Below the pieces are notes generated by a model. That model saw nothing but the letters and a program-made list of their open reading frames with translations. It was not told the origin of the DNA and ran no database searches. From Candidatus Binatia bacterium (lineage in GTDB: Bacteria > Desulfobacterota > Binatia > HRBIN30), in the NCBI GenBank assembly GCA_038245295.1, contig JBBRSP010000003.1, forward strand, positions 96,001 through 160,000: a DNA stretch of 64,000 bases. Direction: 5' to 3'. This document shows, piece after piece, positions 1,967 to 14,599 of this stretch. The number at the start of each line of letters is the position of its first letter. Position 1 is the first letter of the stretch. Position numbers and translations under genes: made by a program.

Positions 1967-4900
1967 GTGGTTACAGATCCTGCCCGTGATGCCTGGGCTC
2001 ACCGTTCGCCGTTTGTCGGTCGCACGCATGAGCTCGCCGAGCTACGCCGAGCGCTCGACGACGCCTATGAGCGCCGGACGCGCGTCGTCCTCATTCCGGG
2101 GGATCCGGGAATTGGCAAGACCCGCCTGGCCAACGAAATCGCTGAGGAAGCGGCGCAGCGCGGCGCCGCCGTCCTATGGGGACGCTGCTGGGAAGGCGGC
2201 GGCGCGCCGGCCTACTGGCCGTGGGTGCAGGTGCTGCGTGCCTGCAGTACGCACGAGTCTGTCGATCCGCTGATCGCCGGTGAAGCCGCGGCTCTGGAAC
2301 GTCGCCTGGCTCCGGATACGCGTCGTCAGGCCACCCCGGAGCCGCGTGTCGAACCGACCAGATTCGATCTCTTCGACGAGACCACTCGGCTGGTGCGGCA
2401 CCTCGCCGCCAGCGGTGTCGCCGTGATTGTGTTGGATGATTTGCACGCGGCCGACGAACCATCCCTGCATTTGATGTTGTTCCTGGCGCGTGAACTGCGC
2501 AATGCTTCCGTGCTTGTCGTTGGCACCTATCGCGACGCGGCTACCCGACAATCACCGGCGCTGGCGCGACACCTCGCCGCCTTGTCGCGTGAAAGTCGGG
2601 TGCTGCCGCTACGCGGCCTGAGCGACGCCGAAGTGGGAGAGTTCGTCGCCGCTCTCGTCGAAGCCCCACCTCCGGATACGCTTGTGGACGAGTTGTGTCG
2701 CGTCACGGAAGGGAACCCCTTTTTCCTGGACGAGATCGTGCGTCTGTGGCGTGCCGGCAAAGGACGGAACGTGCCTGACCGGTTGCCGATTCCGGATCAG
2801 GTGCGCGATGCGATCCGCTATCGGCTGGAGCCGCTCGGCGATGCGATTCTCAATGTGCTGCGCGTCGCCGCCGTGTTGGGCCGTGAATTCGAGCAGCGCA
2901 TTGTCGAGCGTCTCGTCGCCGCCGATGCGGCGCCATCGGTGTATCGTTGCTTGACGGAGGCGGTCGCGGCGGGTGTGGTGCACGAGATGCCGACGCAGCT
3001 CGGTCGGTACCGTTTCTCTCATGCCCTGATCGTCGATACCCTTTACGCCGATCTAGGGAGTCCGGAGCGCGCCGCGGTCCATTGCGCCGCGGCGGCCGGG
3101 CTCGAACGCCTGTATGCCGCGGCCCTTGATGCCCACGCGGCCGAGATTGCCGAGCATCACCTGCGCGCCGGGCGCAGCGGTGACGCCCATAGCGCCGTTG
3201 CCTTTGCGCTGCGGGCAGGGCGGCGCGCGATGCGTGTGCTCGCCTACGAAGATGCGGCCTACTGGTTTGAACGTGCCGACAAGGTGATGGACGAGCTTGG
3301 CGCGGAGCCGCTCGCGCAAGCCCAGGTCTGGCTCGATATCGGGGAAGCCCACCGCCTCGCCGGCAGTTTCGCTCAGGCGGCGCCGGCATTTCAACGCGTC
3401 GTTGCCGTGGCACGGCGACACGGGTTGCGCGAGGCATTCGTCGAAGCCGTCCTAGGAATCGGCCAGGTCGCTGCCGAGACGGGTGTTGTCAATGCCAACC
3501 TGGTGGCGTTGTTGGAACAGGCACTGACCTGGCTTCCCGAGGAAGATAGCGCCGTGCGGGTGCGACTCCTCGGTCGCTTGGCGGTGGCATTGTACTTCTC
3601 GCCGAGCGACCCACGGCGCGAACTTGCTAGCCGGGACGCCGTCGCCATGGCGCGCCGCCTGGACGATGCTGGTGTGCTTACGGTGGCGTTGCGGACACGG
3701 CATTTCTCTCTGTGGAAGCCTGGCGCGGCCGAAGAGCGGCTGGCTCTGGCGCGTGAGATGCTGCGTTTGGGGGAACGGATTGGCGACGTCGAAGCGCAGT
3801 TCGGCGGCCTCAACTGGGGTGTGATCGATCAACTTGAGCTCGGGCAAATCCAGGCGGCCCGCGAGGACCTTGCGGCCTATGGTCAACTCGCGGCCGAACA
3901 CCACGCGCCGCGCGAGCAGTGGAATGTTACCCTGCTGCGTAGCGCCCTGGCTTTGTATCAGGGCGATCTGAGCTCTGGGGAGTATTTGGCGAAGACGGCA
4001 TTCGCACTCGGCGACCGCTGGGAAGTCGCCAATGCGGCGCAGTTTCTCAGTGTCCAGACATTCATCTTGTTCCGCGAGCTCGACCGCCTGCAGGAGCTCG
4101 AGGGCAGCGTGCGTACTCTGGTGGAACGCCTGCCGAATCTACCCGTTTGGCGCTGCGGTTTGGCGCTGTTGTATGCCGAGACCGGTAAGAGAGAAGCGGC
4201 GCAGCGTGAGCTGGCGTTGCTGGCGGCCCACGATTTCGCCGACTTGCCGGCGGATGCAAATTGGATTCCCGCCCTTTGCCTGCTCGCCGAGATTGCCGCG
4301 GCCACGAAAGATGCGGCGCGTGCGCAGACTCTTCTTGATCTACTGCGCCCCCATTCCGGCTGTACGTCGGTGTTTGGCACAGGCGCCGCGTGTGCCGGGT
4401 CGGTGACCTACTATCTTGGGTTGCTCGCGGCGACCGTTGGCAAGACCGACGAAGCGGCAAGCTGGTTTGCCGCGGCAGAGCACACTCACACCGAAGCGGG
4501 AGCATTCCCGTGGATCATTCGCGGACACGTCGCCGAAGTTGAAATGGGTCTGCGTTTCGGCGTCGCCGTCGATGCGCCGCTGGCGCGCTTGCATGCCGTG
4601 TTGGATGGCCTTGTTCTGCCGCGCCTGCAACGCCAGGTCGAGGAGATTGAAGCGTCGTTGCGAGAGCGCCGGAAGCCCGGCCCGGCGGCAATCCAGTTCG
4701 AACAAGCGGGGGAGTATTGGTCGTTGCACGGCACCGGGGAGCCATTCCTGCTGCAGGATACAAAAGGCTTGCGCTATTTGGCGCATCTGTTGCGCCATCC
4801 TCGCGACGAGTTTGGTGCCGCGACGTTGCAACAGCTGGGCGAGGGCCACAGCAAGACACGAATCGATGCTGCCGTATGCGCCGAACGTGCGGAGCTAGAA

Positions 4901-5179
4901 GTGCTGCAAAGTGAGTTGGCCGAGGCCGTATCGTTCAACGATCTTGGTCGCATCGAGAGAACTCGGGCTCAGATCAGCGACCTGGCACGCCGGGCGACGA
5001 GTCGCTCGGAAGCCGAGGCGCCGGCAGCGGAAAAAGCCCGGCTGAATGTGACCCGCGCCATCCTGGCGGCGGTGCGTCGCATTCGTGCGCAGGACGAGGT
5101 TCTTGGCCGCTACCTCGCGACGAACGTTCACACCGGCAGCGTTTGTTGCTTCCAGGCGGGTCCCTGGCCGCCGAAGTAG
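1967..5179 (+). CDS. AAA (STAND-type) ATPase with TPR-like repeats, putative transcriptional regulator
   Basis: FVGRTHEL, Walker A GDPGIGKT, Walker B VIVLDDLHAAD, TEGNPFFL and RYRFSHAL. C-terminal KGLRYLAHLL...EKARLNVTRAI module. Confidence 0.9.
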   Translation: MVTDPARDAWAHRSPFVGRTHELAELRRALDDAYERRTRVVLIPGDPGIGKTRLANEIAEEAAQRGAAVLWGRCWEGGGAPAYWPWVQVLRACSTHESVDPLIAGEAAALERRLAPDTRRQATPEPRVEPTRFDLFDETTRLVRHLAASGVAVIVLDDLHAADEPSLHLMLFLARELRNASVLVVGTYRDAATRQSPALARHLAALSRESRVLPLRGLSDAEVGEFVAALVEAPPPDTLVDELCRVTEGNPFFLDEIVRLWRAGKGRNVPDRLPIPDQVRDAIRYRLEPLGDAILNVLRVAAVLGREFEQRIVERLVAADAAPSVYRCLTEAVAAGVVHEMPTQLGRYRFSHALIVDTLYADLGSPERAAVHCAAAAGLERLYAAALDAHAAEIAEHHLRAGRSGDAHSAVAFALRAGRRAMRVLAYEDAAYWFERADKVMDELGAEPLAQAQVWLDIGEAHRLAGSFAQAAPAFQRVVAVARRHGLREAFVEAVLGIGQVAAETGVVNANLVALLEQALTWLPEEDSAVRVRLLGRLAVALYFSPSDPRRELASRDAVAMARRLDDAGVLTVALRTRHFSLWKPGAAEERLALAREMLRLGERIGDVEAQFGGLNWGVIDQLELGQIQAAREDLAAYGQLAAEHHAPREQWNVTLLRSALALYQGDLSSGEYLAKTAFALGDRWEVANAAQFLSVQTFILFRELDRLQELEGSVRTLVERLPNLPVWRCGLALLYAETGKREAAQRELALLAAHDFADLPADANWIPALCLLAEIAAATKDAARAQTLLDLLRPHSGCTSVFGTGAACAGSVTYYLGLLAATVGKTDEAASWFAAAEHTHTEAGAFPWIIRGHVAEVEMGLRFGVAVDAPLARLHAVLDGLVLPRLQRQVEEIEASLRERRKPGPAAIQFEQAGEYWSLHGTGEPFLLQDTKGLRYLAHLLRHPRDEFGAATLQQLGEGHSKTRIDAAVCAERAELEVLQSELAEAVSFNDLGRIERTRAQISDLARRATSRSEAEAPAAEKARLNVTRAILAAVRRIRAQDEVLGRYLATNVHTGSVCCFQAGPWPPK

Positions 5180-5189
5180 GGCGGCTGCC

Positions 5190-5256
5190 GCCATTTGCCC
5201 ATTTGGCTATTTGGCCATTTAGTCTTTAGTCATTTGGCCATCGGGCCACTTGGCCG
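5190..5256. repeat. Degenerate tandem ~8-nt repeat (CATTTGGC-like) between convergent genes
   Basis: ccatttgc ccatttgg ctatttgg ccatttag tctttagt catttggc catcgggc cacttggc. Confidence 0.7.
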
Positions 5257-5258
5257 TC

Positions 5259-6212
5259 TTAGGCGGGTAGGCCGGTCGTTTCACCGAGCCCGAGCATCAG
5301 GTTGATATTCTGGATCGCCACACCGCTGGCGCCTTTGCCCAGGTTGTCGAGAATGGCAACGAGCAGGACATGTCCGGAAGGATGCGGTAGGACGTGCAGG
5401 TCCATACGATTGGTGTCGTTGCAGGCGAGCGGATCGAAGCTGCGATCGTGGGTCGCCGGTGCTTCCTGAAACTCGACAACTCGGACGAACGGCTCCTCGG
5501 CATAGCGCGCCTGCAGAGTTTCCCAGATCTCGCGCCCATTGGTGTCGGCGACCAGCGCCGCGTGCAGCGGAATCTGGATGCGCATGCCGGCGCGAAAAGG
5601 TCCAACCGCGGGCTCGAAGTACGGCTCCTGTTGCAGGCCGGAATATTTCGTCATCTCTGGAACGTGTTTGTGGACCCGCTCCAGCGCGTAGGGTGCTTCA
5701 TAGGCAAGCGACAGGAGGCTGCCCTCCGGATCTTCCCATTTCTCGATGAGTTGCCGCCCGCCGCCGGAGTAGCCGGATAACGCGTGTACGCTGATCGGGG
5801 CGAAAGGCGAGAGGAGCCCGGCGTCGATCAAGGGCCGCAGCAACAAGACGATGCCGCTCGGGTAACAGCCGGGATTCGATACGTACTTGGCGGCCCGGAT
5901 GGCGTCGCGCTGTTCGGGCGCCAGCTCCGGCAGTCCATAGACCCAGCCGTCGGCGACCCGATGTGCCGTGCTCGCATCGATCAGGCGCGTCGGTGTATCC
6001 CGCACCCAGGAAGCGGCTTCGCGCGACGCATCGTCAGGCAGACACAACACGGCGAGATCCGCCGCCTGTAGTAACTCGCGCCGCGCCGCCGCATCCTTGC
6101 GCTGTTCATCCGGGAGGGTGAGGAGCTCGACGTCGGTGCGTGCCGCCATCCAGTCGCGAATGCGCAGGCCGGTAGTTCCGACGTGGCCGTCTATGTAGAT
6201 CCGTGGTCGCAT
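5259..6212 (-). CDS. argC: N-acetyl-gamma-glutamyl-phosphate reductase (short type 2 form)
   Basis: IYIDGHVGTTGLRI, IDASTAHRV, WVYGLPEL, catalytic NPGCYP, SGYSGGG and LDNLGKGASG. Confidence 0.95.
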   Translation of the reverse strand: MRPRIYIDGHVGTTGLRIRDWMAARTDVELLTLPDEQRKDAAARRELLQAADLAVLCLPDDASREAASWVRDTPTRLIDASTAHRVADGWVYGLPELAPEQRDAIRAAKYVSNPGCYPSGIVLLLRPLIDAGLLSPFAPISVHALSGYSGGGRQLIEKWEDPEGSLLSLAYEAPYALERVHKHVPEMTKYSGLQQEPYFEPAVGPFRAGMRIQIPLHAALVADTNGREIWETLQARYAEEPFVRVVEFQEAPATHDRSFDPLACNDTNRMDLHVLPHPSGHVLLVAILDNLGKGASGVAIQNINLMLGLGETTGLPA

Positions 6213-6281
6213 GGGTAGCTGATGCTATCCGCTGGCGTCGTGTGGCTCAATTCGGGAGGCGCAAAAGCTTTCGACGAATGA

Positions 6282-7634
6282 CTACGGCGCCAGCGTCGCG
6301 CCGACTTCCGTCAGCGCATGGTCGAGCGCCGTCACGATGGTATCGATTTCTCGCTCCTTGATGATCAACGGCGGGCACAGCGCGATGGTGTCGACACTGG
6401 CGCGCACGATGACGCCCTGCGCCAGGGTGGCGGCGCGGATGCGCAGCGGGATGTTCCATTCTGGCGGCAACGGTTCCTTGCTCTGCTTGTCGCGCACGAA
6501 CTCGAGTGCGGCCATCAGGCCGGCGGCGCGCACCTCGCCGACGATCGGGTGTCGCTCAAGGGTACGCAGTTTCTTGGCAAAGTAGGGCGCCAGACGGCGC
6601 GTCCGCTGCACCAGCTTTTCCTTTTCTATGATGTCTAGATTCGCCAATCCTGCCGCACAGACGACCGGGTGACCCGAATACGTAAAGCCGTGGTACAAAG
6701 AAAAGTCCGGCCCGGCATCGACCATTGTCTGGTAGATATCCTCCTTCATGAGTACGCCGCCGAGCGGCAGATAGCCGCTGGTCACGCTCTTGGCGAAGGA
6801 GATCATGTCGGGAACGGCCTTCCAGCGCTGTATGCCGAAGTTGTGCCCGAGACGGCCAAAGCCGGTGATTACCTCATCGGCGATCATCAAGACATTGTAT
6901 TTGTCGCAGATGGCGCGGATGCGCTCGAAATACCCGGGTGGCGGAACGATGACGCCGCCCACACCTTGCACCGGTTCGGCAATGAACGCACCGACGGTGT
7001 CGGGACCCTCCTCGAGGATGATGCGCTCGAGCTCGTCGGCACAGGCCAAGGCGCATCCGGGGTACGTCAGCTTGAGCTCACAGCGGTAACAAAACGGTCG
7101 CGCCATGCGCAGAACCCCTGGCATCATCGGCTCGTAGTACTTGTGGAAGTAGGGCAGGCCGGTGAGACTTGCCGAGCCGGTCGACGACCCGTGGTAGGCA
7201 CGTGTCAGCGCCACCATCTTTACCTTGTCGGCTTTTCCCTTGAGTCGCCAATACAACCGCATGAAGCGGATGACGCTTTCATTCGCCTCGGAACCGCCGG
7301 ATGTGAAGGAGACGCGGGTCAGCCCCTTGGGCGCCATCTTGACGATGCGCGTCGCCAATTCCTCGGCCGCCGGAGAGGAGAAGCCGAGGAGAGTCGGAAC
7401 AAATTCGAGGGCCCGTATCTGGCGCGCCGCGGCCGCGGCGATCGTCGGTCGGCCGTGGCCGACAGCAACGTTCCAGAGCGATGCCAGGCCGTCGATATAT
7501 CTATTTCCCTCGTCGTCCCACACGTAGATGCCACGACCCTTCACCAAACGAGTCGTGCCGTTGGCGGCGATCGTCGCCGGCGAGGCAAAGCCGCAAATCA
7601 AGTTCTTCGGGGCGCGACGACGTGGTTTCGGCAT
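6282..7634 (-). CDS. Class III PLP-dependent aminotransferase (omega-amino acid/SpuC/BioA-like)
   Basis: YIDGLASLW, SGGSEANE, AYHGS, FIAEPVQG, DEVITGFGR, PLP lysine in FAKSVTSGY, and HGFTYSGHP. Confidence 0.93.
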   Translation of the reverse strand: MPKPRRRAPKNLICGFASPATIAANGTTRLVKGRGIYVWDDEGNRYIDGLASLWNVAVGHGRPTIAAAAARQIRALEFVPTLLGFSSPAAEELATRIVKMAPKGLTRVSFTSGGSEANESVIRFMRLYWRLKGKADKVKMVALTRAYHGSSTGSASLTGLPYFHKYYEPMMPGVLRMARPFCYRCELKLTYPGCALACADELERIILEEGPDTVGAFIAEPVQGVGGVIVPPPGYFERIRAICDKYNVLMIADEVITGFGRLGHNFGIQRWKAVPDMISFAKSVTSGYLPLGGVLMKEDIYQTMVDAGPDFSLYHGFTYSGHPVVCAAGLANLDIIEKEKLVQRTRRLAPYFAKKLRTLERHPIVGEVRAAGLMAALEFVRDKQSKEPLPPEWNIPLRIRAATLAQGVIVRASVDTIALCPPLIIKEREIDTIVTALDHALTEVGATLAP

Positions 7635-7807
7635 TTCCAGGCTCCCTCCTGCGGCATAGACCTATAGAGTATGGACCGGCATCAAAGGAAGTCGCCAAAT
7701 CCAATACGCTGCGCCGGACGTAGTTTGGATCGAAGTGGTAAGACCAGAGTCGCTTCACGGCGGCGAGAAGGTTACACGGGAGACACGTTGTGGTAGGCGC
7801 CAACTGG

Positions 7808-8227
7808 ATGAGAAAGCGAAGCATCATGCCCAGGCTGGCCTCCGTGGTCATGCTGGCTGCCTTCGCGTTCCAGGCGGGAACGCCACGTGTCGCCGTTCTG
7901 TTTCACGAACATGCCGGCGGTGAGCACGCTCACGTACACACCAGCGACATCGACGCCCTCATCAACGAATTCGCTACCCCGCCGCAGATCCGTGCGCGCA
8001 TCGCCCATCGCGCCGCCAGAGGCCTTGCCCTCGCGGTCGAACATCACAGTGGCCTGCACGCGCACTGGCAACAAGCCTTTCACGGGATCGATCGCCCATC
8101 CGATCCTCCGGCGCTCGCCGTTGCTGGCCTTGCCAGATCCCTCGGCCGCGCGCCGGGCGCTGCCGCCCTTCGAGGCAGTACGCTCGTCCCCCAGGTCCGC
8201 GGCCCGCCCCTCCCCGCCTGCGTCTAG
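7808..8227 (+). CDS. His-rich leader protein (uORF) with signal-like N-terminus and C-terminal RGPP arrest-type motif
   Basis: MRKRS plus hydrophobic LASVVMLAAFAFQA. His clusters HEHAGGEHAHVH and HHSGLHAHW. Ends QVRGPPLPACV, 79 nt before the receptor start codon. Confidence 0.75.
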   Translation: MRKRSIMPRLASVVMLAAFAFQAGTPRVAVLFHEHAGGEHAHVHTSDIDALINEFATPPQIRARIAHRAARGLALAVEHHSGLHAHWQQAFHGIDRPSDPPALAVAGLARSLGRAPGAAALRGSTLVPQVRGPPLPACV

Positions 8228-8306
8228 AACATACTACCAAAGCAGGAACGGGGACCGGGTTGTCGGTTTCGCAGCACCGCGCCCCGGATGTTCATGGAGG
8301 GAGCGG
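8204..8306 (+). promoter_or_regulatory. Putative SD-sequestering mRNA structure
   Basis: CCGCCCCTCC (8204-8213) is complementary to GGAGGG-A-GCGG (8296-8306) with one bulge. Inner stems: GAACAT (8227-8232)/ATGTTC (8288-8293) and CGGGG (8249-8253)/CCCCG (8282-8286). Confidence 0.6.
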
Positions 8307-10571
8307 ATGAAACGCATGACTATGGCGCTCGGCGTCGCGACTGTAGCGGTGTGCCTGGGCGCGCCGGCATGGGCACACGACCCGGACAACGGCGACCAGA
8401 CCGTTGCCGGGGCAACGCATGAGACCAAGCTCGACGAGGTTGTCATCGAAGCCAAGAAGCCGGTGTCGGCGGCCTCGTCCGACGAGGTGCGGGCGCGCGA
8501 CTACGAGCTACGCCCGCACGATACGACGCAAGAGATTCTTAATAACCTTCCTGGCGTTGTCGTGGCGCAACACCAGGGCGGCGGCAAAGCGACGCAGTAC
8601 CTCGTGCGCGGATTCGACGCTGACCACGGCACCGACTTCGCCGTCTCCGTCGACGGGCTGCCGGTCAACCTGCCGACACACGCGCACGGCCAGGGGTATG
8701 CCGATTTGAACTTCGTCATCCCGGAGACCATCGAGCGCTTGCAGCTGCGCAAAGGTCCGTACTTTGCCGACCTGGGTGATTTCGCCAATGCCGGTGCCCT
8801 CAACATGGTGACGCGGGATGAGGTGCCGGAGAACTTCGGACGCGCCGAAGGCGGTTCGTTCGGTACACAGCGCTACGTCGCCGCGGTTTCGCCGAAGCTC
8901 AGTTGGACGAAGAACTTGACCGCGGCGCAGGCGTATTTTTCGGACGGACCATTCGTCAATCCGCAACACTACGCGCGCTACAATTTCTTCACAAAGTTTA
9001 CGATCGATTCGTTGCCCGACTCGAAGTTGTCGCTGACGGCAAGTGTGTATCAGGGTGACTGGGACGGTTCGGGCGAAATCCCGCTGCGGGTCGTGCAAGA
9101 CGGCCGCTTGCAGTTGGATCCGGCCGGGACTCCCAATCCGCGAAGCCGCTCGTTCACGCGCTTCGACTCGATCGATCCCACCGAAGGTGGCTCAAGTGAT
9201 CGCGAGAACCTCAATCTTCAATATAACTATACGCCCAGCGCCCGCGACGACTGGTCGTTCCAACTCTACGGCTCGCGCTATAAGCTGCAGCTGTTTAGTG
9301 ATTTCACCTTCTTCAAGGACACGGGGTTGCGATTCAAAGATGCCAACGGCAACTACATCCCCGGCGACGGCATCGAGCAGAACGACTCGCGTCTGTTGTA
9401 CGGTGGGAAGGCCAAGTACACGCGAAACTGGGGCCTCAGCGATCTGCCCGGTCCGGTCCACGACATCGCGATGCAGACAGAGGTCGGTGTTGAAACACGC
9501 AACGACATCATCGACGTCGCGTTGCACCGCCAACTGCGCCGCCAAAGGTTCTTCACGGTGAACGATGTGGCCGTCGAAGAGCACACGTTCAGCGGTTTTT
9601 TGCAGCAGCAGGTATTCCTTACCGACTGGTTGCGGATTGAGGGTGGGTTACGCGGCGACGTCTTCCTCTTCGACGGCAGCAATCGGCTGCCGCAACAAGG
9701 CAACGACCCGAACTTCGACGCTGTGTACGTTGCCGGGAACTCGACCAACTCGATTGTCAGCCCGAAGGCGAGCATCATCTTGACGCCTCTCAACGACACC
9801 GACGTCTACCTGAACTACGGCAACGGTTTTCATTCGAACGACGCGCGCAATGTCCTGTTGGCCAAAGCCAACCCGCAACTGGCCGGAAATGCGACCTCGG
9901 CGTTGGCACGCTCCACCGGCTACGAGCTCGGCGCACGGACCCGCCAGTTCGGCAAACTCGACGTCGCGGCGGCCTTGTGGCTGCTCGATCTGCAAAGTGA
10001 GTTGGTGTTCTCCGGTGACGGTGGCAACCAGGAAACGGCGGCCGGAGGTAGCTTTCAGCCGAGCGGCCCAACCCGGCGCTGGGGCGTCGACTTCGAAACG
10101 CGTTACGAGCTGACCAGTTGGTTGTTCGCCGACTACGACTTGTCGTGGTCTGATCCGCGCTTTCGGAACACCGGCGAGGCCGTGCCGTTGGCCCCAACGC
10201 TGTTGATGAACGGTGGTTTGACGGCCGAGTGGGCGAATGGCTTCTCGGCTGGCTTGCGTGGGCGGTACCTGGGGGATCGGCCCGCCATCGAGGATCGCAG
10301 CCTGACGGCGCGAGGTTATTTCCTGTTGGACCTGTTGGGCAAATACCGTTGGCGCAATATCGAAGTGTCGTTGGTGCTGCTCAATCTGACCGACACGGAC
10401 TGGCGTGAGGCGCAGTTTGCCGACACGACCTGTGTCTTGGGGGAAGTGGGGAAGGGGAACTGCGCCGCCAACCCCGGCAAACAGGGCAGCCAGGGCGATC
10501 CACCGGACAGCATCCATTTCACTCCGGGTAATCCGTTCAACGTGCGCGGCGGCGTCAGTGTCTACTTCTAG
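8307..10571 (+). CDS. TonB-dependent outer-membrane receptor
   Basis: SD GGAGGG then MKRMTMALG...AWA signal peptide. TonB-box-like DEVVIEA. Plug motif QHQGGGKATQYLVRGFDADHGTD. Ends in a terminal beta-strand VRGGVSVYF. Confidence 0.93.
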   Translation: MKRMTMALGVATVAVCLGAPAWAHDPDNGDQTVAGATHETKLDEVVIEAKKPVSAASSDEVRARDYELRPHDTTQEILNNLPGVVVAQHQGGGKATQYLVRGFDADHGTDFAVSVDGLPVNLPTHAHGQGYADLNFVIPETIERLQLRKGPYFADLGDFANAGALNMVTRDEVPENFGRAEGGSFGTQRYVAAVSPKLSWTKNLTAAQAYFSDGPFVNPQHYARYNFFTKFTIDSLPDSKLSLTASVYQGDWDGSGEIPLRVVQDGRLQLDPAGTPNPRSRSFTRFDSIDPTEGGSSDRENLNLQYNYTPSARDDWSFQLYGSRYKLQLFSDFTFFKDTGLRFKDANGNYIPGDGIEQNDSRLLYGGKAKYTRNWGLSDLPGPVHDIAMQTEVGVETRNDIIDVALHRQLRRQRFFTVNDVAVEEHTFSGFLQQQVFLTDWLRIEGGLRGDVFLFDGSNRLPQQGNDPNFDAVYVAGNSTNSIVSPKASIILTPLNDTDVYLNYGNGFHSNDARNVLLAKANPQLAGNATSALARSTGYELGARTRQFGKLDVAAALWLLDLQSELVFSGDGGNQETAAGGSFQPSGPTRRWGVDFETRYELTSWLFADYDLSWSDPRFRNTGEAVPLAPTLLMNGGLTAEWANGFSAGLRGRYLGDRPAIEDRSLTARGYFLLDLLGKYRWRNIEVSLVLLNLTDTDWREAQFADTTCVLGEVGKGNCAANPGKQGSQGDPPDSIHFTPGNPFNVRGGVSVYF

Positions 10572-10575
10572 GCCG

Positions 10576-11334
10576 ATGCCCCAGCAACTGTCCTCAACGA
10601 CCCGCTCGCCCGCTCTCGCTCCTGTGCGAGCGCGGGCGACGGCGGCTTCCGTCGCACTCCATCTCGTCTTGCTCGGGCTGGCATTTCTGTTGGGGCGGCA
10701 GTCGACCACACCACCGCCGATTCAGATTCGGTTGGTGTACGTCGAGCCCAAGGTGATCGATGCCCCAGCCCCCGCGCCGCCGCCGCCGGCTGCGGAACCG
10801 GCCCAAGCCGCACCGATTGAGGTGCCGCAGACGATGCCCCACAGGGCAGCCGAGAAGCCGATCGATCCGCCGCAACGCAAACATGTGATCGCCGCCAAGA
10901 AGCCGCCGGCAGCGCAGCAGGCGTCGCCACCGGCGCCGGATGCCGCTGCTTCAGATGCAGCCGTTGGTGGTCTCGAGGGTGGCGTGGTCGGTGGGGAAGT
11001 CGGCGGCAAAGAGGGCGGCCGAATTGGTGGCCAAGGTGATGCGCCTGTGCGTGAGGATCAGGTGGCACATCCGCCGACGGTCGTGTCGCGCGTCGTGCCG
11101 ACCTATCCCGCCATGGCACGGGCCCGCGGCATCGAAGGGCGTGTTCTGTTGCGAGCCATCGTTGATCGTGACGGCCATGTAGAACCGGCGGTGGAGGTCA
11201 TCGAATCGATGGCGCCGTTCGATGTCCCGGCAGTCGATGCCCTGCGCCAGTGGCACTTTCACCCGGGAAGCGACGCCGACGGAAAGACGGTCCGCGTGGT
11301 CGTCGAGGTGCCGATGCGTTTTCAGTTACGTTGA
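10576..11334 (+). CDS. tonB: TonB family energy transducer
   Basis: TM segment SVALHLVLLGL, Pro/Ala-rich linker, and C-domain YPAMARARGIEGRV...WHFHPG...VPMRFQLR. Confidence 0.9.
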   Translation: MPQQLSSTTRSPALAPVRARATAASVALHLVLLGLAFLLGRQSTTPPPIQIRLVYVEPKVIDAPAPAPPPPAAEPAQAAPIEVPQTMPHRAAEKPIDPPQRKHVIAAKKPPAAQQASPPAPDAAASDAAVGGLEGGVVGGEVGGKEGGRIGGQGDAPVREDQVAHPPTVVSRVVPTYPAMARARGIEGRVLLRAIVDRDGHVEPAVEVIESMAPFDVPAVDALRQWHFHPGSDADGKTVRVVVEVPMRFQLR

Positions 11335-11690: not shown

Positions 11691-11785
11691 CGAGCCGCTC
11701 CATTGCGCGCTTCAAACACTCTATGTGGCTCCGTGTAGATCCGTATGGTAGTCAGAAAAAAAACCTGAGATCAAGGAACTTCTCA

Positions 11786-13240
11786 ATGCCGACCCCCCCG
11801 ACCACTGTCGATCCCGTCCGCTTCTTTTTGGAGCGCTTCGGGCTATCGCACAACCAACTCGAAAATACCGTCGCCTCGGCCATCGCCCGCCGCGCTGACT
11901 ACGCTGATCTCTACTTCGAATTCCGTACATTACAAAGTCTCAGCTTGGAAGATGGAATCGTCAAGAGCGCCGGACAGCACGTGGCGCAGGGCGCCGGCGT
12001 GCGCGTCGTCGCCGGCGACAAGACCGGTTACGCGCACTCCGACGACGTTAGCATTGAGAGTCTGCAGTTGGCCACGCGGACGGCTCAAGCGATCGCCCAG
12101 CAGTCGAGTGATCCGCGTTCGGTGGCGGTTCGCCCGATGGTCGCGGCGCACGATCTCTACACCCTGGCGCGGTCGCCGTTCGACATCCGGCTGGCCGACA
12201 AGGTCGACCTTCTCAACCGCATCGATATCGCGGCGCGGCGTCACGACTCGCGCATCAAGAACGTGATGGCCTCGGTGGCGGTCGAAGAAAAGTACATCGT
12301 CATCGTAGGGTCGACCGGCTTTATCATCGGCGACGTACAACCTCTCGTACGCCTCAATGTCACCTGCATCGCCGAGGAGAATGGCCAGCGCCAACAAGGC
12401 ACCTATGGCGGCGGCGGTCGGGTAGAATTCGAGTTTCTCCTGCAAGAGGACCGCTGGCTGCGCTACACGCGTACCGCTGCAGACCATGCCCTGCGCAACT
12501 TGAAAGCGGTGGATGCCCCAGCGGGATCGATGACCGTCGTGCTGGGCCCGGGTTGGCCCGGCGTGCTGTTACACGAGGCCGTTGGTCACGGACTGGAAGG
12601 CGACTTCAATCGCAAGCAGATCTCGGCGTTCTCGGGCCTGATCGGCAAACAGGTGGCGTCGGAGTTGGTGAGTGTCGTCGACGACGGGACGATGCCGAAT
12701 CGCCGCGGTTCGTTGAACGTCGACGACGAAGGCACACCGACCAGCCGCACGGTGCTCATCGAGAAGGGTATCCTGCGCGGTTACCTGCAGGACCGCATGA
12801 ACGGGCGATTGTCGGGAATGCCGCTCACAGGAAATGGCCGGCGCGAGAGTTTTGCGCACATGCCGATGCCGCGCATGACGAACACGTTCATGTTGGCCGG
12901 CGAGTCGACGCACGACGATATCATTCGGTCGGTCGACCGCGGCTTGTACGCCGCCTACTTCGGCGGCGGCCAGGTCGACATCACCAGCGGCAAGTTCGTC
13001 TTCTCGGCGAGCGAGGCCTATCTGATCGAGGGTGGTAAACTGACGCGTCCCGTGAAGGGTGCAACCTTGATCGGTAGCGGCCCCGAAGCGCTCAAGCGTG
13101 TCTCTATGGTGGGTAACGATCTTGAGCTCGACGAAGGCATCGGCACTTGCGGCAAGGACGGCCAATCGGTGCCCGTTGGGGTCGGTATGCCGACGGTGCG
13201 AATCGACGGCATGACCGTCGGTGGAACACAGGCGAGCTGA
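11786..13240 (+). CDS. tldD: Metalloprotease TldD
   Basis: GWPGVLLHEAVGHGLEGDFNRK, PMPRMTNT, GGGQVDITSGKFVF and CGKDGQSVPVGVG. Confidence 0.96.
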   Translation: MPTPPTTVDPVRFFLERFGLSHNQLENTVASAIARRADYADLYFEFRTLQSLSLEDGIVKSAGQHVAQGAGVRVVAGDKTGYAHSDDVSIESLQLATRTAQAIAQQSSDPRSVAVRPMVAAHDLYTLARSPFDIRLADKVDLLNRIDIAARRHDSRIKNVMASVAVEEKYIVIVGSTGFIIGDVQPLVRLNVTCIAEENGQRQQGTYGGGGRVEFEFLLQEDRWLRYTRTAADHALRNLKAVDAPAGSMTVVLGPGWPGVLLHEAVGHGLEGDFNRKQISAFSGLIGKQVASELVSVVDDGTMPNRRGSLNVDDEGTPTSRTVLIEKGILRGYLQDRMNGRLSGMPLTGNGRRESFAHMPMPRMTNTFMLAGESTHDDIIRSVDRGLYAAYFGGGQVDITSGKFVFSASEAYLIEGGKLTRPVKGATLIGSGPEALKRVSMVGNDLELDEGIGTCGKDGQSVPVGVGMPTVRIDGMTVGGTQAS

Positions 13241-13243
13241 GCT

Positions 13244-14599
13244 ATGGGACTCGACATGCAACTCGAAGACGTGGCGCAGCAGCTTCTGGCGGCGGCCAAG
13301 AGTGCTGGAGCAACGGCCGCCGACGTCGTCGTCGCCGAAGGCGACTCGCTCGAAACGGGGGTCCGCCTCGGCGAGATTGAGAAGCTCAAACAGTCGCGCC
13401 AGAAACATCTTGGTTTGCGCGTGTTCGTCGGTGACCGAAGCGCCGTGACCTCGTCGTCTGATTTCTCGGCCGCTGCGATTCGTCAACTCGCCGTCGATAC
13501 CTGTGAGCTGGCAAAGGTGATCGCGGCCGACCCATTTGGTGGGCTCCCGGAGGCGTCCGACCTGGCCCAATCGGTGCCAGATCTCGATCTCTACGACCCA
13601 GCCGTCGCCGAGTTCACGGCCGAGGCGGCCATCGAGCTGGCCAAGGAAGCCGAAGCGGCGGCGCTCGGAGCCGATCCGCGTATCACCAATTCCGAGGGTG
13701 CCGAGTGTGGCGCGTCGACGTCGCGTGTTTTGTATGCCTCGTCGCTCGGCTTCTTGGGCAGCTATCGCGACTCGGGTGTATCCCTGTCGACCGTACCGAT
13801 CGCCTCCGAGAACGGTTCGATGCAGCGCGACTACTGGTACACCGCGCAACGCCGCCTTTCGGCGCTCGAGGCGCCCGGGGACGTTGGTCGCAAGGCGGCG
13901 GCCCGGGCTTTGCGGCGCCTCAACGGCAAGCAGGTCAAAACGTGCGCGGTACCGGTCGTATTCGATCCGGACGTTGCCGCAAGCCTGATCCGTCACCTCG
14001 CGGGAGCGGTCTCGGGATATTCTCTCTATAAGGGGAGCTCGTTCTTGATCGGTAAACTCGGCCAACGCATCGCGCCGGAGTTTGTGACGATCTTCGACGA
14101 TGGCACCCTGGTCGGGCGCCTGGGCTCGAAGCCGTTCGATGCCGAAGGTTTGGCGACCCGCCGCAATGTTGTGGTCGAGAAGGGTGTCTTGAAGAGTTAC
14201 CTGTTCGACACCTATTCGGCACGCAAGCTCAACAGCCGCAGCACCGGCAATGCGGCGCGCTCGGTTGGTTCGCCGCCGATGGTGTCGACGACCAACTTCA
14301 TTCTCGAAGCCGGTACTTCAACGCCGCAAGAGATCATCGCTTCGGTGCGTGACGGGCTCTATGTGACCGAGCTCATCGGTATGGGCGTCAACGGGACCAC
14401 CGGTGACTACTCGCGTGGTGCCGTCGGCTTGTGGATTGAGAACGGCCAGCTGGCGTATCCGGTGGAAGAGATCACCATTGCCGGGAACCTGCTGGAGATG
14501 TACCAGCGCCTCGAGATGATCGGCAACGATCTCGACTATCGTCATTCGGTTTGTGCGCCGACGCTCAAGATCGCCAAAATGACCGTTGCGGGAAGCTGA
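13244..14599 (+). CDS. pmbA: TldE/PmbA partner subunit
   Basis: Directly follows tldD. MQRDYWY, SKPFDAEG, TGDYSRGAVGLWIENG and EITIAGNL; no HExxxH motif. Confidence 0.95.
   Translation: MGLDMQLEDVAQQLLAAAKSAGATAADVVVAEGDSLETGVRLGEIEKLKQSRQKHLGLRVFVGDRSAVTSSSDFSAAAIRQLAVDTCELAKVIAADPFGGLPEASDLAQSVPDLDLYDPAVAEFTAEAAIELAKEAEAAALGADPRITNSEGAECGASTSRVLYASSLGFLGSYRDSGVSLSTVPIASENGSMQRDYWYTAQRRLSALEAPGDVGRKAAARALRRLNGKQVKTCAVPVVFDPDVAASLIRHLAGAVSGYSLYKGSSFLIGKLGQRIAPEFVTIFDDGTLVGRLGSKPFDAEGLATRRNVVVEKGVLKSYLFDTYSARKLNSRSTGNAARSVGSPPMVSTTNFILEAGTSTPQEIIASVRDGLYVTELIGMGVNGTTGDYSRGAVGLWIENGQLAYPVEEITIAGNLLEMYQRLEMIGNDLDYRHSVCAPTLKIAKMTVAGS

Follow-up and report, generated by a model that had tools for sequence, protein, structure and literature searches.

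A conserved His-rich leader ending in R[AG]PP, a candidate metal-responsive arrest peptide ahead of a TonB-dependent receptor and TonB in Binatia

A small gene ahead of a receptor and TonB

We examined a window of 64,000 nucleotides from a Candidatus Binatia bacterium (contig JBBRSP010000003.1), in which an ORF of 139 aa directly precedes the genes for a TonB-dependent receptor and TonB (Table 1). The first-pass annotation had credited this ORF with a basic and hydrophobic N-terminus, two His clusters and an RGPP motif five codons before the stop, and translation, together with the Plug and TonB_C matches of the following genes, bears out this description. The N-terminus consists of a basic segment, MRKRSIMPR, and a 17-residue hydrophobic stretch, and in homologues A-x-A-like sites lie ahead of (A/S/T)-P-R (alignment A2, 30 sequences). 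The second His cluster reads HHSGLHAHW (residues 79–87, nt 8042–8068), and the RGPP motif is followed by LPACV and the TAG at 8225–8227. The single Cys of the window leader lies in this tail, and A2 has no conserved Cys column.

Table 1. Features of the leader–receptor–TonB locus, in window coordinates.
Feature	Position	Strand	Basis
Promoter-like element, GTTACA and TAGGCG 17 nt apart; its end is 8 nt upstream of the leader ATG	7771..7799	+	Inferred only
Leader ORF, 139 aa and TAG stop	7808..8227	+	Translation; family conservation
Putative export signal or membrane anchor, residues 1–26, ending at invariant Pro26	7808..7885	+	AF2 helix 6–24; homologue comparison
His cluster 1, HEHAGGEHAHVH, residues 33–44	7904..7939	+	Alignment A2, 30 sequences
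His motif 2, H84-A-H86 (HxH), invariant, within the 8042–8068 cluster	8057..8065	+	Alignment A2
Spacer, Ala/Pro/Gly-rich, 44 residues in the window protein (43 in most members)	8066..8197	+	Motif spacing
RGPP candidate arrest motif, residues 131–134	8198..8209	+	R131, P133 and P134 invariant in A2
Anti-Shine-Dalgarno stretch CCGCCCCUCC within the predicted stall site	8204..8213	+	Minimum-free-energy fold
Intergenic region, 79 nt, with internal G+C-rich hairpin at ~8249–8286	8228..8306	+	RNA folding
Receptor Shine-Dalgarno GGAGGGAG	8296..8303	+	Within the intergenic region
TonB-dependent receptor, 754 aa, signal peptide MKRMTMALGVATVAVCLGAPAWA	8307..10571	+	Plug PF07715, 2e-15
TonB, ~252 aa from ATG 10576, 5 nt past the receptor stop	10576..11334	+	TonB_C PF03544, 5.7e-16

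The AF2 model of the leader has low overall confidence (pLDDT 64.6), although the two 10-residue blocks over residues 1–20 average 79 and 94. Beyond the helix at residues 6–24, the only strands (30–34 and 83–87) each carry an HxH; past residue 87 the model is mostly coil at low confidence, except for a short helix at 103–112, and the last 27 residues are coil. Because of this low confidence, the modelled geometry of the His clusters is merely suggestive.

The receptor has no informative named relative among NCBIfam families or, by sequence, among solved structures. Of the 16 NCBIfam families that it hits at E up to 1, none comes near its own cut-off (TIGR01785, the best, scores 90 bits where 317 are required), and the OprC-type copper transporter model TIGR01778 is absent from these 16. 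By sequence, the solved structure closest to it is the BtuB plug (1.7e-8). Gene neighbours say little about a substrate: in 16 enlarged loci of the family, a DUF4198 gene lies between receptor and TonB in one, MbnP lies ~5 kb downstream in one, and F420_oxidored-domain genes occur in two. A match of one family member to ZrgA (E = 0.035) was set aside as low-complexity His.

A consensus sigma-70 scan of 7500–8400 gave no match. By eye, L010, L011, L012, L014, L018 and L028 have a pattern similar to the promoter-like element (GTGACA-N17-TAGnnn) at the corresponding upstream position. The leader mRNA may have almost no 5' UTR. No metalloregulator-like conserved palindrome was seen upstream on inspection by eye. 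Among public sequencing runs, the window stretch occurs in DNA contigs of one study only, with no RNA run listed.

A conserved, unnamed family

The leader belongs to a conserved, unnamed protein family, whose syntenic members lie ahead of homologous receptors. Within the order, profile searches recover it from 31 of 52 genomes; across the class (database relatives labelled Candidatus Binatia), 73 of the 401 genomes sampled have it, spread over 50 of 146 genera. In a phylum-level sample with nine candidates scored per genome, it was found in 3 of 401 genomes, all three from the window's class. Profiles were needed, since a word-index protein search with the single leader sequence gave no match and an exhaustive phmmer search gave only four representatives. 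A degenerate DNA pattern for HxHxGGxHxHxH, scanned over genome contigs, hit at least 120 unrelated stretches with no family member among the matches listed, and says nothing on distribution beyond the class.

Ten positions are invariant in A2 (P26, H33, H35, H42, H44, H84, H86, R131, P133 and P134), with G38 conserved in at least 90% of its sequences, and the Arg and Pro codons of R-x-P-P vary synonymously among relatives. A C-terminal R[AGS]PP is present in 50 of 52 distinct members, as RGPP (26), RAPP (21) or RSPP (3), and lies 2–11 residues before the stop; RAPP and RGPP are reported as the most robust arrest cores, with RSPP partially permissive (PMC12992588). Conservation in relatives had been set beforehand as the refuting test, and the signal-like N-terminus, the His clusters and R[AG]PP are all kept upstream of homologous receptors.

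A lone C-terminal R[AG]PP is unremarkable by chance in the host genome (62.7% GC), where 99 of 62,660 stop-to-stop frames of at least 60 aa carry one in their last 16 residues. What raises the leader above this level is conservation: relatives retain the ORF in frame, together with its six His and R-x-P-P. Of the seven Plug-domain genes in the window's genome, a single one is preceded by a frame of this type. A functionless chance ORF in G+C-rich DNA, which the background frequency might otherwise allow, is contradicted by the in-frame conservation of the ORF and ten residues across 50 genera, and we give this explanation practically no credence.

Receptors of the clade do not always have the leader, which is missing upstream of 7 of 13 further ones. 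Among 16 enlarged loci, the gene after the leader encodes a Plug or barrel protein in 13, and TonB_C lies downstream in 8. The related loci are kin, and counts over them are hence not independent.

A fixed spacing between His motif and Arg

From the second HxH to the Arg there are 43 residues in 43 of the 50 R[AGS]PP members (44 in three, 42 in three and 39 in one), so that 49 of 50 fall within 42–44, and no column of this spacer is invariant in A2. Motifs 1 and 2, by comparison, lie 29 to 112 residues apart. The HxH-to-Arg spacing parallels the ruler of two copper-responsive leaders. In CruR (CXXC-45-RAPP), changes of one or two residues are tolerated and an insertion of five abolishes copper control (PMC9426467); in CutF the ruler is likewise 45 residues (PMC9973294). 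DUF2946 proteins of the window's own lineage show CxxC-45/46-R[AG]PP.

These features also bear on whether the product might work mainly as a mature protein, namely a periplasmic or membrane-anchored His-rich partner (chaperone or buffer) of the receptor, with R[AG]PP tuning its own yield or being incidental. Six invariant His, the placing of an HxH on each of the two modelled strands, and the long additional His-rich inserts of several members (L204, L208 and L215) would suit such a role. Against it, the C-terminal third is fixed in length, unconserved in sequence and ends in what is described as the proteome's most avoided motif (PMC12992588), a combination expected of a tunnel spacer rather than a folded domain; over that part AF2 predicts mostly coil, with low confidence; and both CruR (PMC9426467) and CutF (PMC9973294) are quickly degraded once made. 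We consider a mature partner protein quite improbable.

Relation to published arrest leaders

CruR (Bp2923) of Bordetella pertussis, the prototype of Pfam DUF2946, is likewise a small first gene before a TonB-dependent transporter (PMC9426467), and its arrest and toeprint have been shown (PMC12992588). The two leaders share an N-terminal export-type signal (a candidate one in Binatia), a C-rich 3' region and a ligand motif at a fixed distance (45 residues in CruR, 43 here) from a C-terminal R-A/G-P-P that stands 3–5 residues before the stop. In contrast to CruR, the Binatia leader has HxH and six His in place of CXXC, a gap of 79 nt instead of 162 nt, a predicted stall site complementary to the downstream Shine-Dalgarno, and a receptor that is not of the OprC type, judging by the missing TIGR01778 match.

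The proposal that the leader has the same layout as CruR and CutF is supported in part, with a parallel ruler, and the accompanying DUF2946 check came out negative. The PF11162 model matched neither the window leader at E up to 1 nor eight family members at E up to 10. Across the order it has matches in 3 of 52 genomes, always away from the His-leader loci, and the window's genome encodes a true DUF2946 protein elsewhere (25.8 bits). Furthermore, hhalign of A2 against A5, three DUF2946 sequences of the lineage, aligned 13 columns, the RxPP tail alone (probability 0.28%, E = 0.22). By sequence, the leader is a layout analogue of DUF2946 and not a detectable member.

With CutF of Rhodobacter capsulatus the leader shares a gap below 100 nt and a helix masking the Shine-Dalgarno, predicted in the leader (PMC9973294), and it fits the Ozturk 2023 CutF-like filter applied here. 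That work describes His-only variants (SSN clusters 14 and 17 of 29), taken to indicate metals other than copper; these precede HupE/UreJ genes, and CutF itself controls an oxidase, its arrest being prolonged by metal (PMC9973294), whereas our leader precedes a TonB-dependent receptor. Similar in kind are the small RAPP/RGPP uORFs before TonB-dependent receptors of Fujiwara et al., EMBO J 2025 (PMC12992588), marked by a length below 300 aa, a motif near the C-terminus, a localisation signal and a TonB-dependent receptor downstream. At 139 aa, with RGPP five residues from its end and 79 nt before a receptor, the leader fits this class in length, motif and position, and its conserved basic and hydrophobic N-terminus, modelled as a helix at 6–24, is a candidate localisation signal; the class is a statistical, motif-based grouping, and the passages of that paper covered here describe no His-type family, ruler or anti-Shine-Dalgarno feature. 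Its source data, from 52,895 GTDB genomes, may already list family members. Finally, SecM, ApdA and ApdP resemble the proposed leader in having an exported nascent chain, RAPP/RAGP-type arrest and a stalled ribosome that unmasks a downstream ribosome-binding site, but they monitor Sec activity and control sec genes, whereas this leader precedes a receptor and TonB and its chain carries a conserved His set.

To call the leader new, as the first-pass annotation did, was therefore an overstatement, given the published RAPP/RGPP uORFs (PMC12992588) and His-only CutF-like leaders (PMC9973294). Its general kind is already in print, and the family extends the idea without founding it.

The predicted stall site and the receptor Shine-Dalgarno

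By analogy with the CruR toeprint reported in PMC12992588, we infer a stall with the Pro133 codon (8204–8206) in the P site and the Pro134 codon (8207–8209) in the A site. In the minimum-free-energy fold, 8204–8213 pairs with 8296–8306 (P ~0.8); among 120 leader windows this one gives the best duplex (−25.5 kcal/mol), a value that 2 of 200 shuffles also reached. The Shine-Dalgarno is paired with the arrest zone at P of at least 0.5 in 11 of 21 loci (mean 0.47; the other 10 lack the pairing), against a genomic control in which 10 of 322 same-strand gene pairs reach that level (mean 0.067). Only 4 of the 21 loci exceed 95% of composition-preserving shuffles, and the pairing is largely a composition effect of C-rich Pro codons facing a G-rich Shine-Dalgarno. 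The fold of 8180–8330 is no stabler than shuffles (z = −0.08); for one subgroup, RNAalifold gave a consensus that is weak (−6.4 kcal/mol, with an unfavourable covariation term), and for the other no consensus structure. With a stalled-ribosome footprint imposed, predicted pairing of the Shine-Dalgarno falls to 0.59 from 0.71, leaving it still partly paired. The leader–receptor gaps of 51–133 nt in 21 loci are within the range in which CutF-type unmasking by a stem-loop was deemed possible (PMC9973294).

The same arrest could instead act on transcription, as in CruR, with the stalled ribosome blocking Rho loading on the C-rich 3' leader mRNA and its release letting Rho terminate before the receptor. 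C-over-G skew along the leaders is highest in the arrest zone, at +0.196 with all 21 of 21 loci positive, and receptor coding sequence has +0.011; CruR operates in this way (PMC9426467), and a search of the locus found no intrinsic terminator. The skew is, however, explained by His, Pro and Ala codons, cruR-bfrG has a longer gap, of 162 nt (PMC9426467), and Shine-Dalgarno pairing exceeds the genomic control. We hold this transcriptional output to be possible, though doubtful. The two outputs are compatible with each other.

A working model

Taken together, we favour the reading, at a probability of about 0.62, that the 139-aa ORF is a cis-acting, metal-responsive regulatory leader of the receptor–tonB operon that works through programmed arrest at its C-terminal RGPP. 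The ribosome would stall once the first Pro codon occupies the P site, and its footprint would cover the C-rich codons 8204–8213 that otherwise pair with the receptor Shine-Dalgarno (8296–8306), freeing the ribosome-binding site so that receptor and TonB are made; it may also shield a C-rich, Rho-loading-like stretch. At arrest the last HxH would be 46–47 residues from the P-site residue, just beyond the exit tunnel, a geometry shared with the CruR CxxC. On this proposal, metal bound to the six invariant His would alter the force on the nascent chain and hence how long the arrest lasts. The sign of CruR would be the most sensible for an uptake receptor: metal would release the arrest, the leader would be finished, the Shine-Dalgarno re-masked and uptake turned off.

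The opposite sign would follow if the leader, like CutF, were exported co-translationally by Sec and periplasmic metal slowed its export, prolonging the arrest and inducing the receptor by its substrate metal. The basic and hydrophobic N-terminus with A-x-A-like sites is conserved in the family, the intergenic gap is short and contains a stem-loop, and CutF requires its Sec signal, the same ~45-residue ruler placing the ligand motif in the SecY vestibule (PMC9973294). Yet induction of an uptake receptor by metal that is already periplasmic makes little regulatory sense, and CruR, described as the only studied leader of a TonB-dependent transporter, has a dispensable signal peptide (PMC9426467). 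We consider periplasmic sensing of this type unlikely. Sensing of Ni, Co or Zn during export was also the proposal of the first-pass annotation; CruR itself has no need of its signal peptide (PMC9426467).

Beyond the regulatory leader as such, we put forward tentatively that the family is an independently evolved, or unrecognisably diverged, His-only nascent-chain sensor that converged on the CruR/CutF ruler, senses not copper but another metal (Ni, Zn or Co) and controls the outer-membrane receptor with its own stall-site codons as the anti-Shine-Dalgarno.

Significance

Nascent-chain metal sensing has been shown so far for copper only, with Cys ligands, in CruR and CutF. A family with an all-His ligand set, no detectable homology and the same ruler would be a second, independent test case for ligand control of RAPP-type arrest near the tunnel exit, and the exact spacing of 43 residues (43 of 50 members) through freely varying sequence makes a clean, testable prediction. 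If the His-only convergence is true, a ligand-to-RAPP ruler of ~45 residues would be a physical design rule that applies generally to the sensing of ligands during translation. For Binatia, a lineage known solely from metagenomes, the leader would give a first regulatory handle on metal uptake.

Conservation of the leader family

In a genome of 62.7% G+C, R[AG]PP falls within the last 16 residues of 99 of 62,660 stop-to-stop frames of at least 60 aa, and a single occurrence, such as the RGPP ending of the His-rich leader, therefore proves nothing. Among the seven Plug-domain genes of this genome, only the receptor gene behind the leader is preceded by a frame with an RxPP-type ending. A single-sequence word-index protein search with the leader gave no match; exhaustive phmmer against 1.84 billion representatives matched four proteins, and a six-frame search of related genomes returned weak yet syntenic matches, which are ORFs of ~140-150 aa immediately 5' of receptors sharing the plug motif, with endings such as ...RAPPPLPSC, ...RAPPAATLV and ...RGPPLVL. 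The leader that the first-pass annotation proposed as a metal-responsive arrest peptide thus has counterparts in relatives, where these syntenic ORFs and profile searches find both ORF and R[AG]PP conserved upstream of homologous receptors.

A profile built from eight leader sequences (A1) matched in 31 of 52 genomes and 22 of 32 genera of the order, and one built from 30 sequences (A2) matched in 73 of the 401 genomes sampled from the class, covering 50 of 146 genera and nine families. At phylum level, only three of 401 sampled genomes matched, all three in the window's class; nine candidates per genome were scored in the class and phylum searches (401 genomes each). The 12 database relatives are all annotated as 'hypothetical protein' and lack Pfam domains, one being labelled Candidatus Binatia bacterium. 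An unpublished genome (G050, loci L018 and L166) supplies one A2 row, one of 50 measured members and one tallied genome, and no claim hangs on it alone. The leader family is real, conserved and unnamed.

Family anatomy and the ruler

Translation confirmed every coordinate that had been assigned to the leader, including an Ala/Pro/Gly-rich stretch between the second His cluster and RGPP.

Coordinates of the leader, its operon and the DUF2946 leader of the same genome
Feature	Position	Strand	Basis or remark
Leader ORF, 139 residues, TAG stop	7808-8227	+	translation
Leader N-terminus: MRKRSIMPR, then hydrophobic stretch LASVVMLAAFAFQAGT			translation
His cluster 1, HEHAGGEHAHVH	residues 33-44, nt 7904-7939	+	translation
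His cluster 2, HHSGLHAHW	residues 79-87, nt 8042-8068	+	translation
RGPP, then LPACV and TAG	residues 131-134, nt 8198-8209	+	translation
TonB-dependent receptor, 754 aa, signal peptide and Plug	8307-10571	+	PF07715, 2e-15
TonB_C protein	10576-11334	+	Pfam search; starts five nucleotides past receptor stop
DUF2946 leader of the genome	G000:C4:132115-132450; locus L038 1489-1947	-	PF11162 match

Members share a signal or anchor followed by Pro, HxH-x6-HxH, a variable region, a second HxH motif and a spacer, and they end in R[AGS]PP with a tail of just 2-11 residues. The invariant positions of A2 are P26, H33, H35, H42, H44, H84, H86, R131, P133 and P134. Pooling the A2 sequences, database proteins, enlarged loci and four leaders found upstream of receptor homologues, with duplicates removed, gave 52 distinct members. 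In 50 of them the second HxH is present together with a C-terminal R[AGS]PP (RGPP in 26, RAPP in 21, RSPP in 3); the exceptions are L193, with a degenerate second His motif, and L199, which lacks an in-frame RxPP.

The ruler, which is the number of residues separating the second HxH from the Arg of R[AGS]PP, is strikingly exact: it measures 43 residues in 43 of the 50, 44 in three (including the window), 42 in three and 39 in one. The distance from the first His cluster to the second HxH ranges from 29 to 112 residues (sd 15.5), and no column of the 43-residue spacer is invariant in A2 or the pooled members. In L204, L208 and L215, 40-70 extra residues, very rich in His and Asp, lie between the two conserved His motifs, and the ruler is exactly 43 despite these inserts. 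Furthermore, the Arg and Pro codons of the ending vary synonymously among loci, so the constraint acts on the peptide. Three leaders (L022 in G007, L037 in G038 and L199 in G458) are split over two frames or have lost the in-frame RxPP, the receptor gene of L199 being likewise broken up; such cases reflect either misassembly or decay of the gene copy.

An AF2 model computed with A2 is of low confidence (mean pLDDT 64.6, pTM 0.35) and predicts an N-terminal helix (residues 6-24), only two strands (30-34 and 83-87), each bearing one HxH, and mostly coil from residue 88 on except for a helix at 103-112. This is compatible with both His motifs forming one His cluster and with a mostly unstructured spacer in the tunnel, the model alone being no evidence for either.

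Comparison with CruR, CutF and DUF2946

In the copper leader CruR, 45 residues separate CXXC from a RAPP that stands three residues before the end; changes of 1-2 residues are tolerated and an addition of five abolishes copper control (PMC9426467). CutF likewise separates its Cu motif from its C-terminal motif by 45 residues (PMC9973294), and the two Pro codons of the CruR RAPP are described as occupying the P and A sites of the stalled ribosome (PMC12992588). If the CruR register is assumed, the last ligand residue of the His-leader family lies 46-47 residues from the one in the P site, compared with 48 for CruR.

Bona fide DUF2946 proteins of this lineage, counted by hand, read CPIC-45-RAPP-ARA, CALC-46-RGPP-ALA and CPVC-45-RGPP-RVG, the same layout as CruR and CutF. 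The window's own genome carries the first of these, a CruR-type leader (CPIC-45-RAPP-ARA-stop, 25.8 bits). The next gene there encodes not a TonB-dependent receptor but a 476-aa protein whose N-terminus is a coiled coil, a pairing that recurs in G017 (L042). The DUF2946 model, a check suggested by the first-pass annotation, does not reach the His leaders: PF11162 matched neither the window leader (E up to 1) nor eight family members (E up to 10), and its matches in three of the 52 genomes of the order include none at the His-leader locus. Moreover, when A2 was compared by hhalign with the three DUF2946 proteins of this lineage (A5), only 13 columns around RxPP aligned, with a probability of 0.28%, and the family has no conserved Cys. 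As far as could be tested, the leader family is not DUF2946; relative to CruR and CutF, it has the same layout but no detectable shared ancestry. The proposed resemblance in layout, with His in place of CxxC, held up (a ruler of 43 against 45, and no conserved Cys), and judged by sequence the design is that of CruR and CutF with histidines replacing cysteines.

The receptor unit and its putative metal

The leader does stand directly before a receptor and tonB, as annotated, with a gap of 79 nt to the receptor. On the opposite strand upstream lie an aminotransferase-like and an argC-like ORF (named by eye from translations), so that the window leader heads its own unit. A conserved promoter-like GTGACA-N17-TAGnnn occurs at 7771-7799 and at the same position in L010, L011, L012, L014, L018 and L028; it ends ~8-10 nt 5' of the leader ATG with no Shine-Dalgarno between, and the leader mRNA may be leaderless or nearly so. 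In one family of genomes (L015, L017, L018, L020, L021, L024 and L025, 160 nt upstream), a conserved membrane-protein gene ending ...FPANIHIALNNVP...WAWWYT* directly precedes the leader, sometimes abutting it, and in those loci the unit does not begin with the leader. The metallopeptidase genes tldD and pmbA follow the receptor unit in the window (11723-14599) and in L187 and L197 of the five-genome genus g9, probably as inherited synteny.

In 13 of 16 enlarged loci, the leader is followed by a gene with a Plug or barrel domain and in one more by a receptor recognised by similarity, the gene in the remaining two having no Pfam match at 1e-5; TonB_C lies downstream in eight of the 16 and ExbD in two. 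In L189 of G039, receptor and TonB form one 1,156-aa open frame (3291-6758) matching only TonB_C at 1e-5, possibly through gene fusion or an error in calling the start. Homologues of the receptor, present in 43 of the 52 genomes of the order, form two subclades (54-74% and 36-39% identity), both with leaders. Inspection of 13 additional receptor upstream regions without a called leader found a His leader in four, a different, Cys-containing RAPP leader in one, a contig end in one and no leader in seven. In a relative, a small ORF (L212, G016:C313, frame from nt 340) with several Cys and a C-terminal RAPP-VFS precedes a paralogous receptor (39% identical) and looks like a second, unrelated RAPP leader family.

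The receptor has no named close relative: its NCBIfam matches all lie far under the cut-offs, no OprC-type model is among them, and of the solved structures the BtuB plug is nearest to it in sequence. Few genes in the 16 enlarged loci hint at a metal: DUF4198 occurs in one locus, MbnP in one and F420_oxidored-domain genes in two. A ligand set made up only of His speaks against Cu(I); any narrower choice of metal would be inference.

Predicted stall site and Shine-Dalgarno

The predicted fold of 8180-8330 pairs CCGCCCCUCC (8204-8213), made up of both RGPP Pro codons and the four bases after them, with GGAGGGAGCGG (8296-8306), the Shine-Dalgarno and spacer of the receptor, at pair probabilities of ~0.8; the stability of this fold is not above that of shuffles (z = -0.08). 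A receptor start could be defined in 21 loci (gaps 51-133 nt), and in 11 of these the mean probability of pairing between Shine-Dalgarno and arrest zone is at least 0.5 (mean 0.47). In five loci no other window of the leader pairs better than the arrest zone, and only four beat 95% of composition-preserving shuffles. Among 322 control pairs of same-strand ORFs in the window genome, with gaps of 50-135 nt and comparable Shine-Dalgarno, the Shine-Dalgarno pairs with the final 30 nt of the preceding gene in ten (3.1%; mean 0.067). Pairing is strongly enriched at the leaders, which are interrelated loci, and much of it stems from composition, as Pro codons are complementary to the Shine-Dalgarno. 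Of two subgroups, RNAalifold gave only one a long-range consensus, which is weak, and with a ribosome footprint imposed the Shine-Dalgarno is predicted to stay partly paired (0.59 vs 0.71). In roughly half of the loci, the window among them, the predicted stall site is thus also an anti-Shine-Dalgarno.

Additionally, C-over-G skew is highest at the arrest zone, where it reaches +0.196 and is positive in all 21 loci, compared with +0.011 in receptor coding sequence; this makes a CruR-like Rho mechanism possible for leader output; no intrinsic terminator is present at the leader-receptor locus. In L010, L012, L013 and L014, the leader stop and a G+C-rich hairpin flank an unstructured conserved motif, GAUUC(U/C)UCGAUCAAC, and a related (C)GAUCGACC occurs in the intergenic regions of L019, L020 and L021.

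Place among known arrest leaders

Among arrest cores, RAPP and RGPP rank as the most robust (PMC12992588). According to that paper, proteomes are depleted of both motifs, small exported proteins are enriched for them at the C-terminus, and they are over-represented before genes for TonB-dependent receptors. Worked examples are CruR, before a TonB-dependent transporter (PMC9426467), and CutF, for Shine-Dalgarno unmasking (PMC9973294); the latter also describes CutF-like clusters with only His-rich motifs, adjoining HupE/UreJ genes, for which Ni or Co is suggested. In the literature on DUF2946, RAPP arrest peptides and CruR, we found no paper on a His-type leader of a TonB-dependent receptor. 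Compared by description only, the leader family may already lie within the clusters of PMC9973294 or the source data of PMC12992588. The first-pass annotation had proposed a candidate new switch, a label too strong for its kind, given CruR, CutF and the His-only CutF-like clusters (PMC9426467, PMC9973294). The kind of switch is already published, and the leader family is a new His-type version of it.
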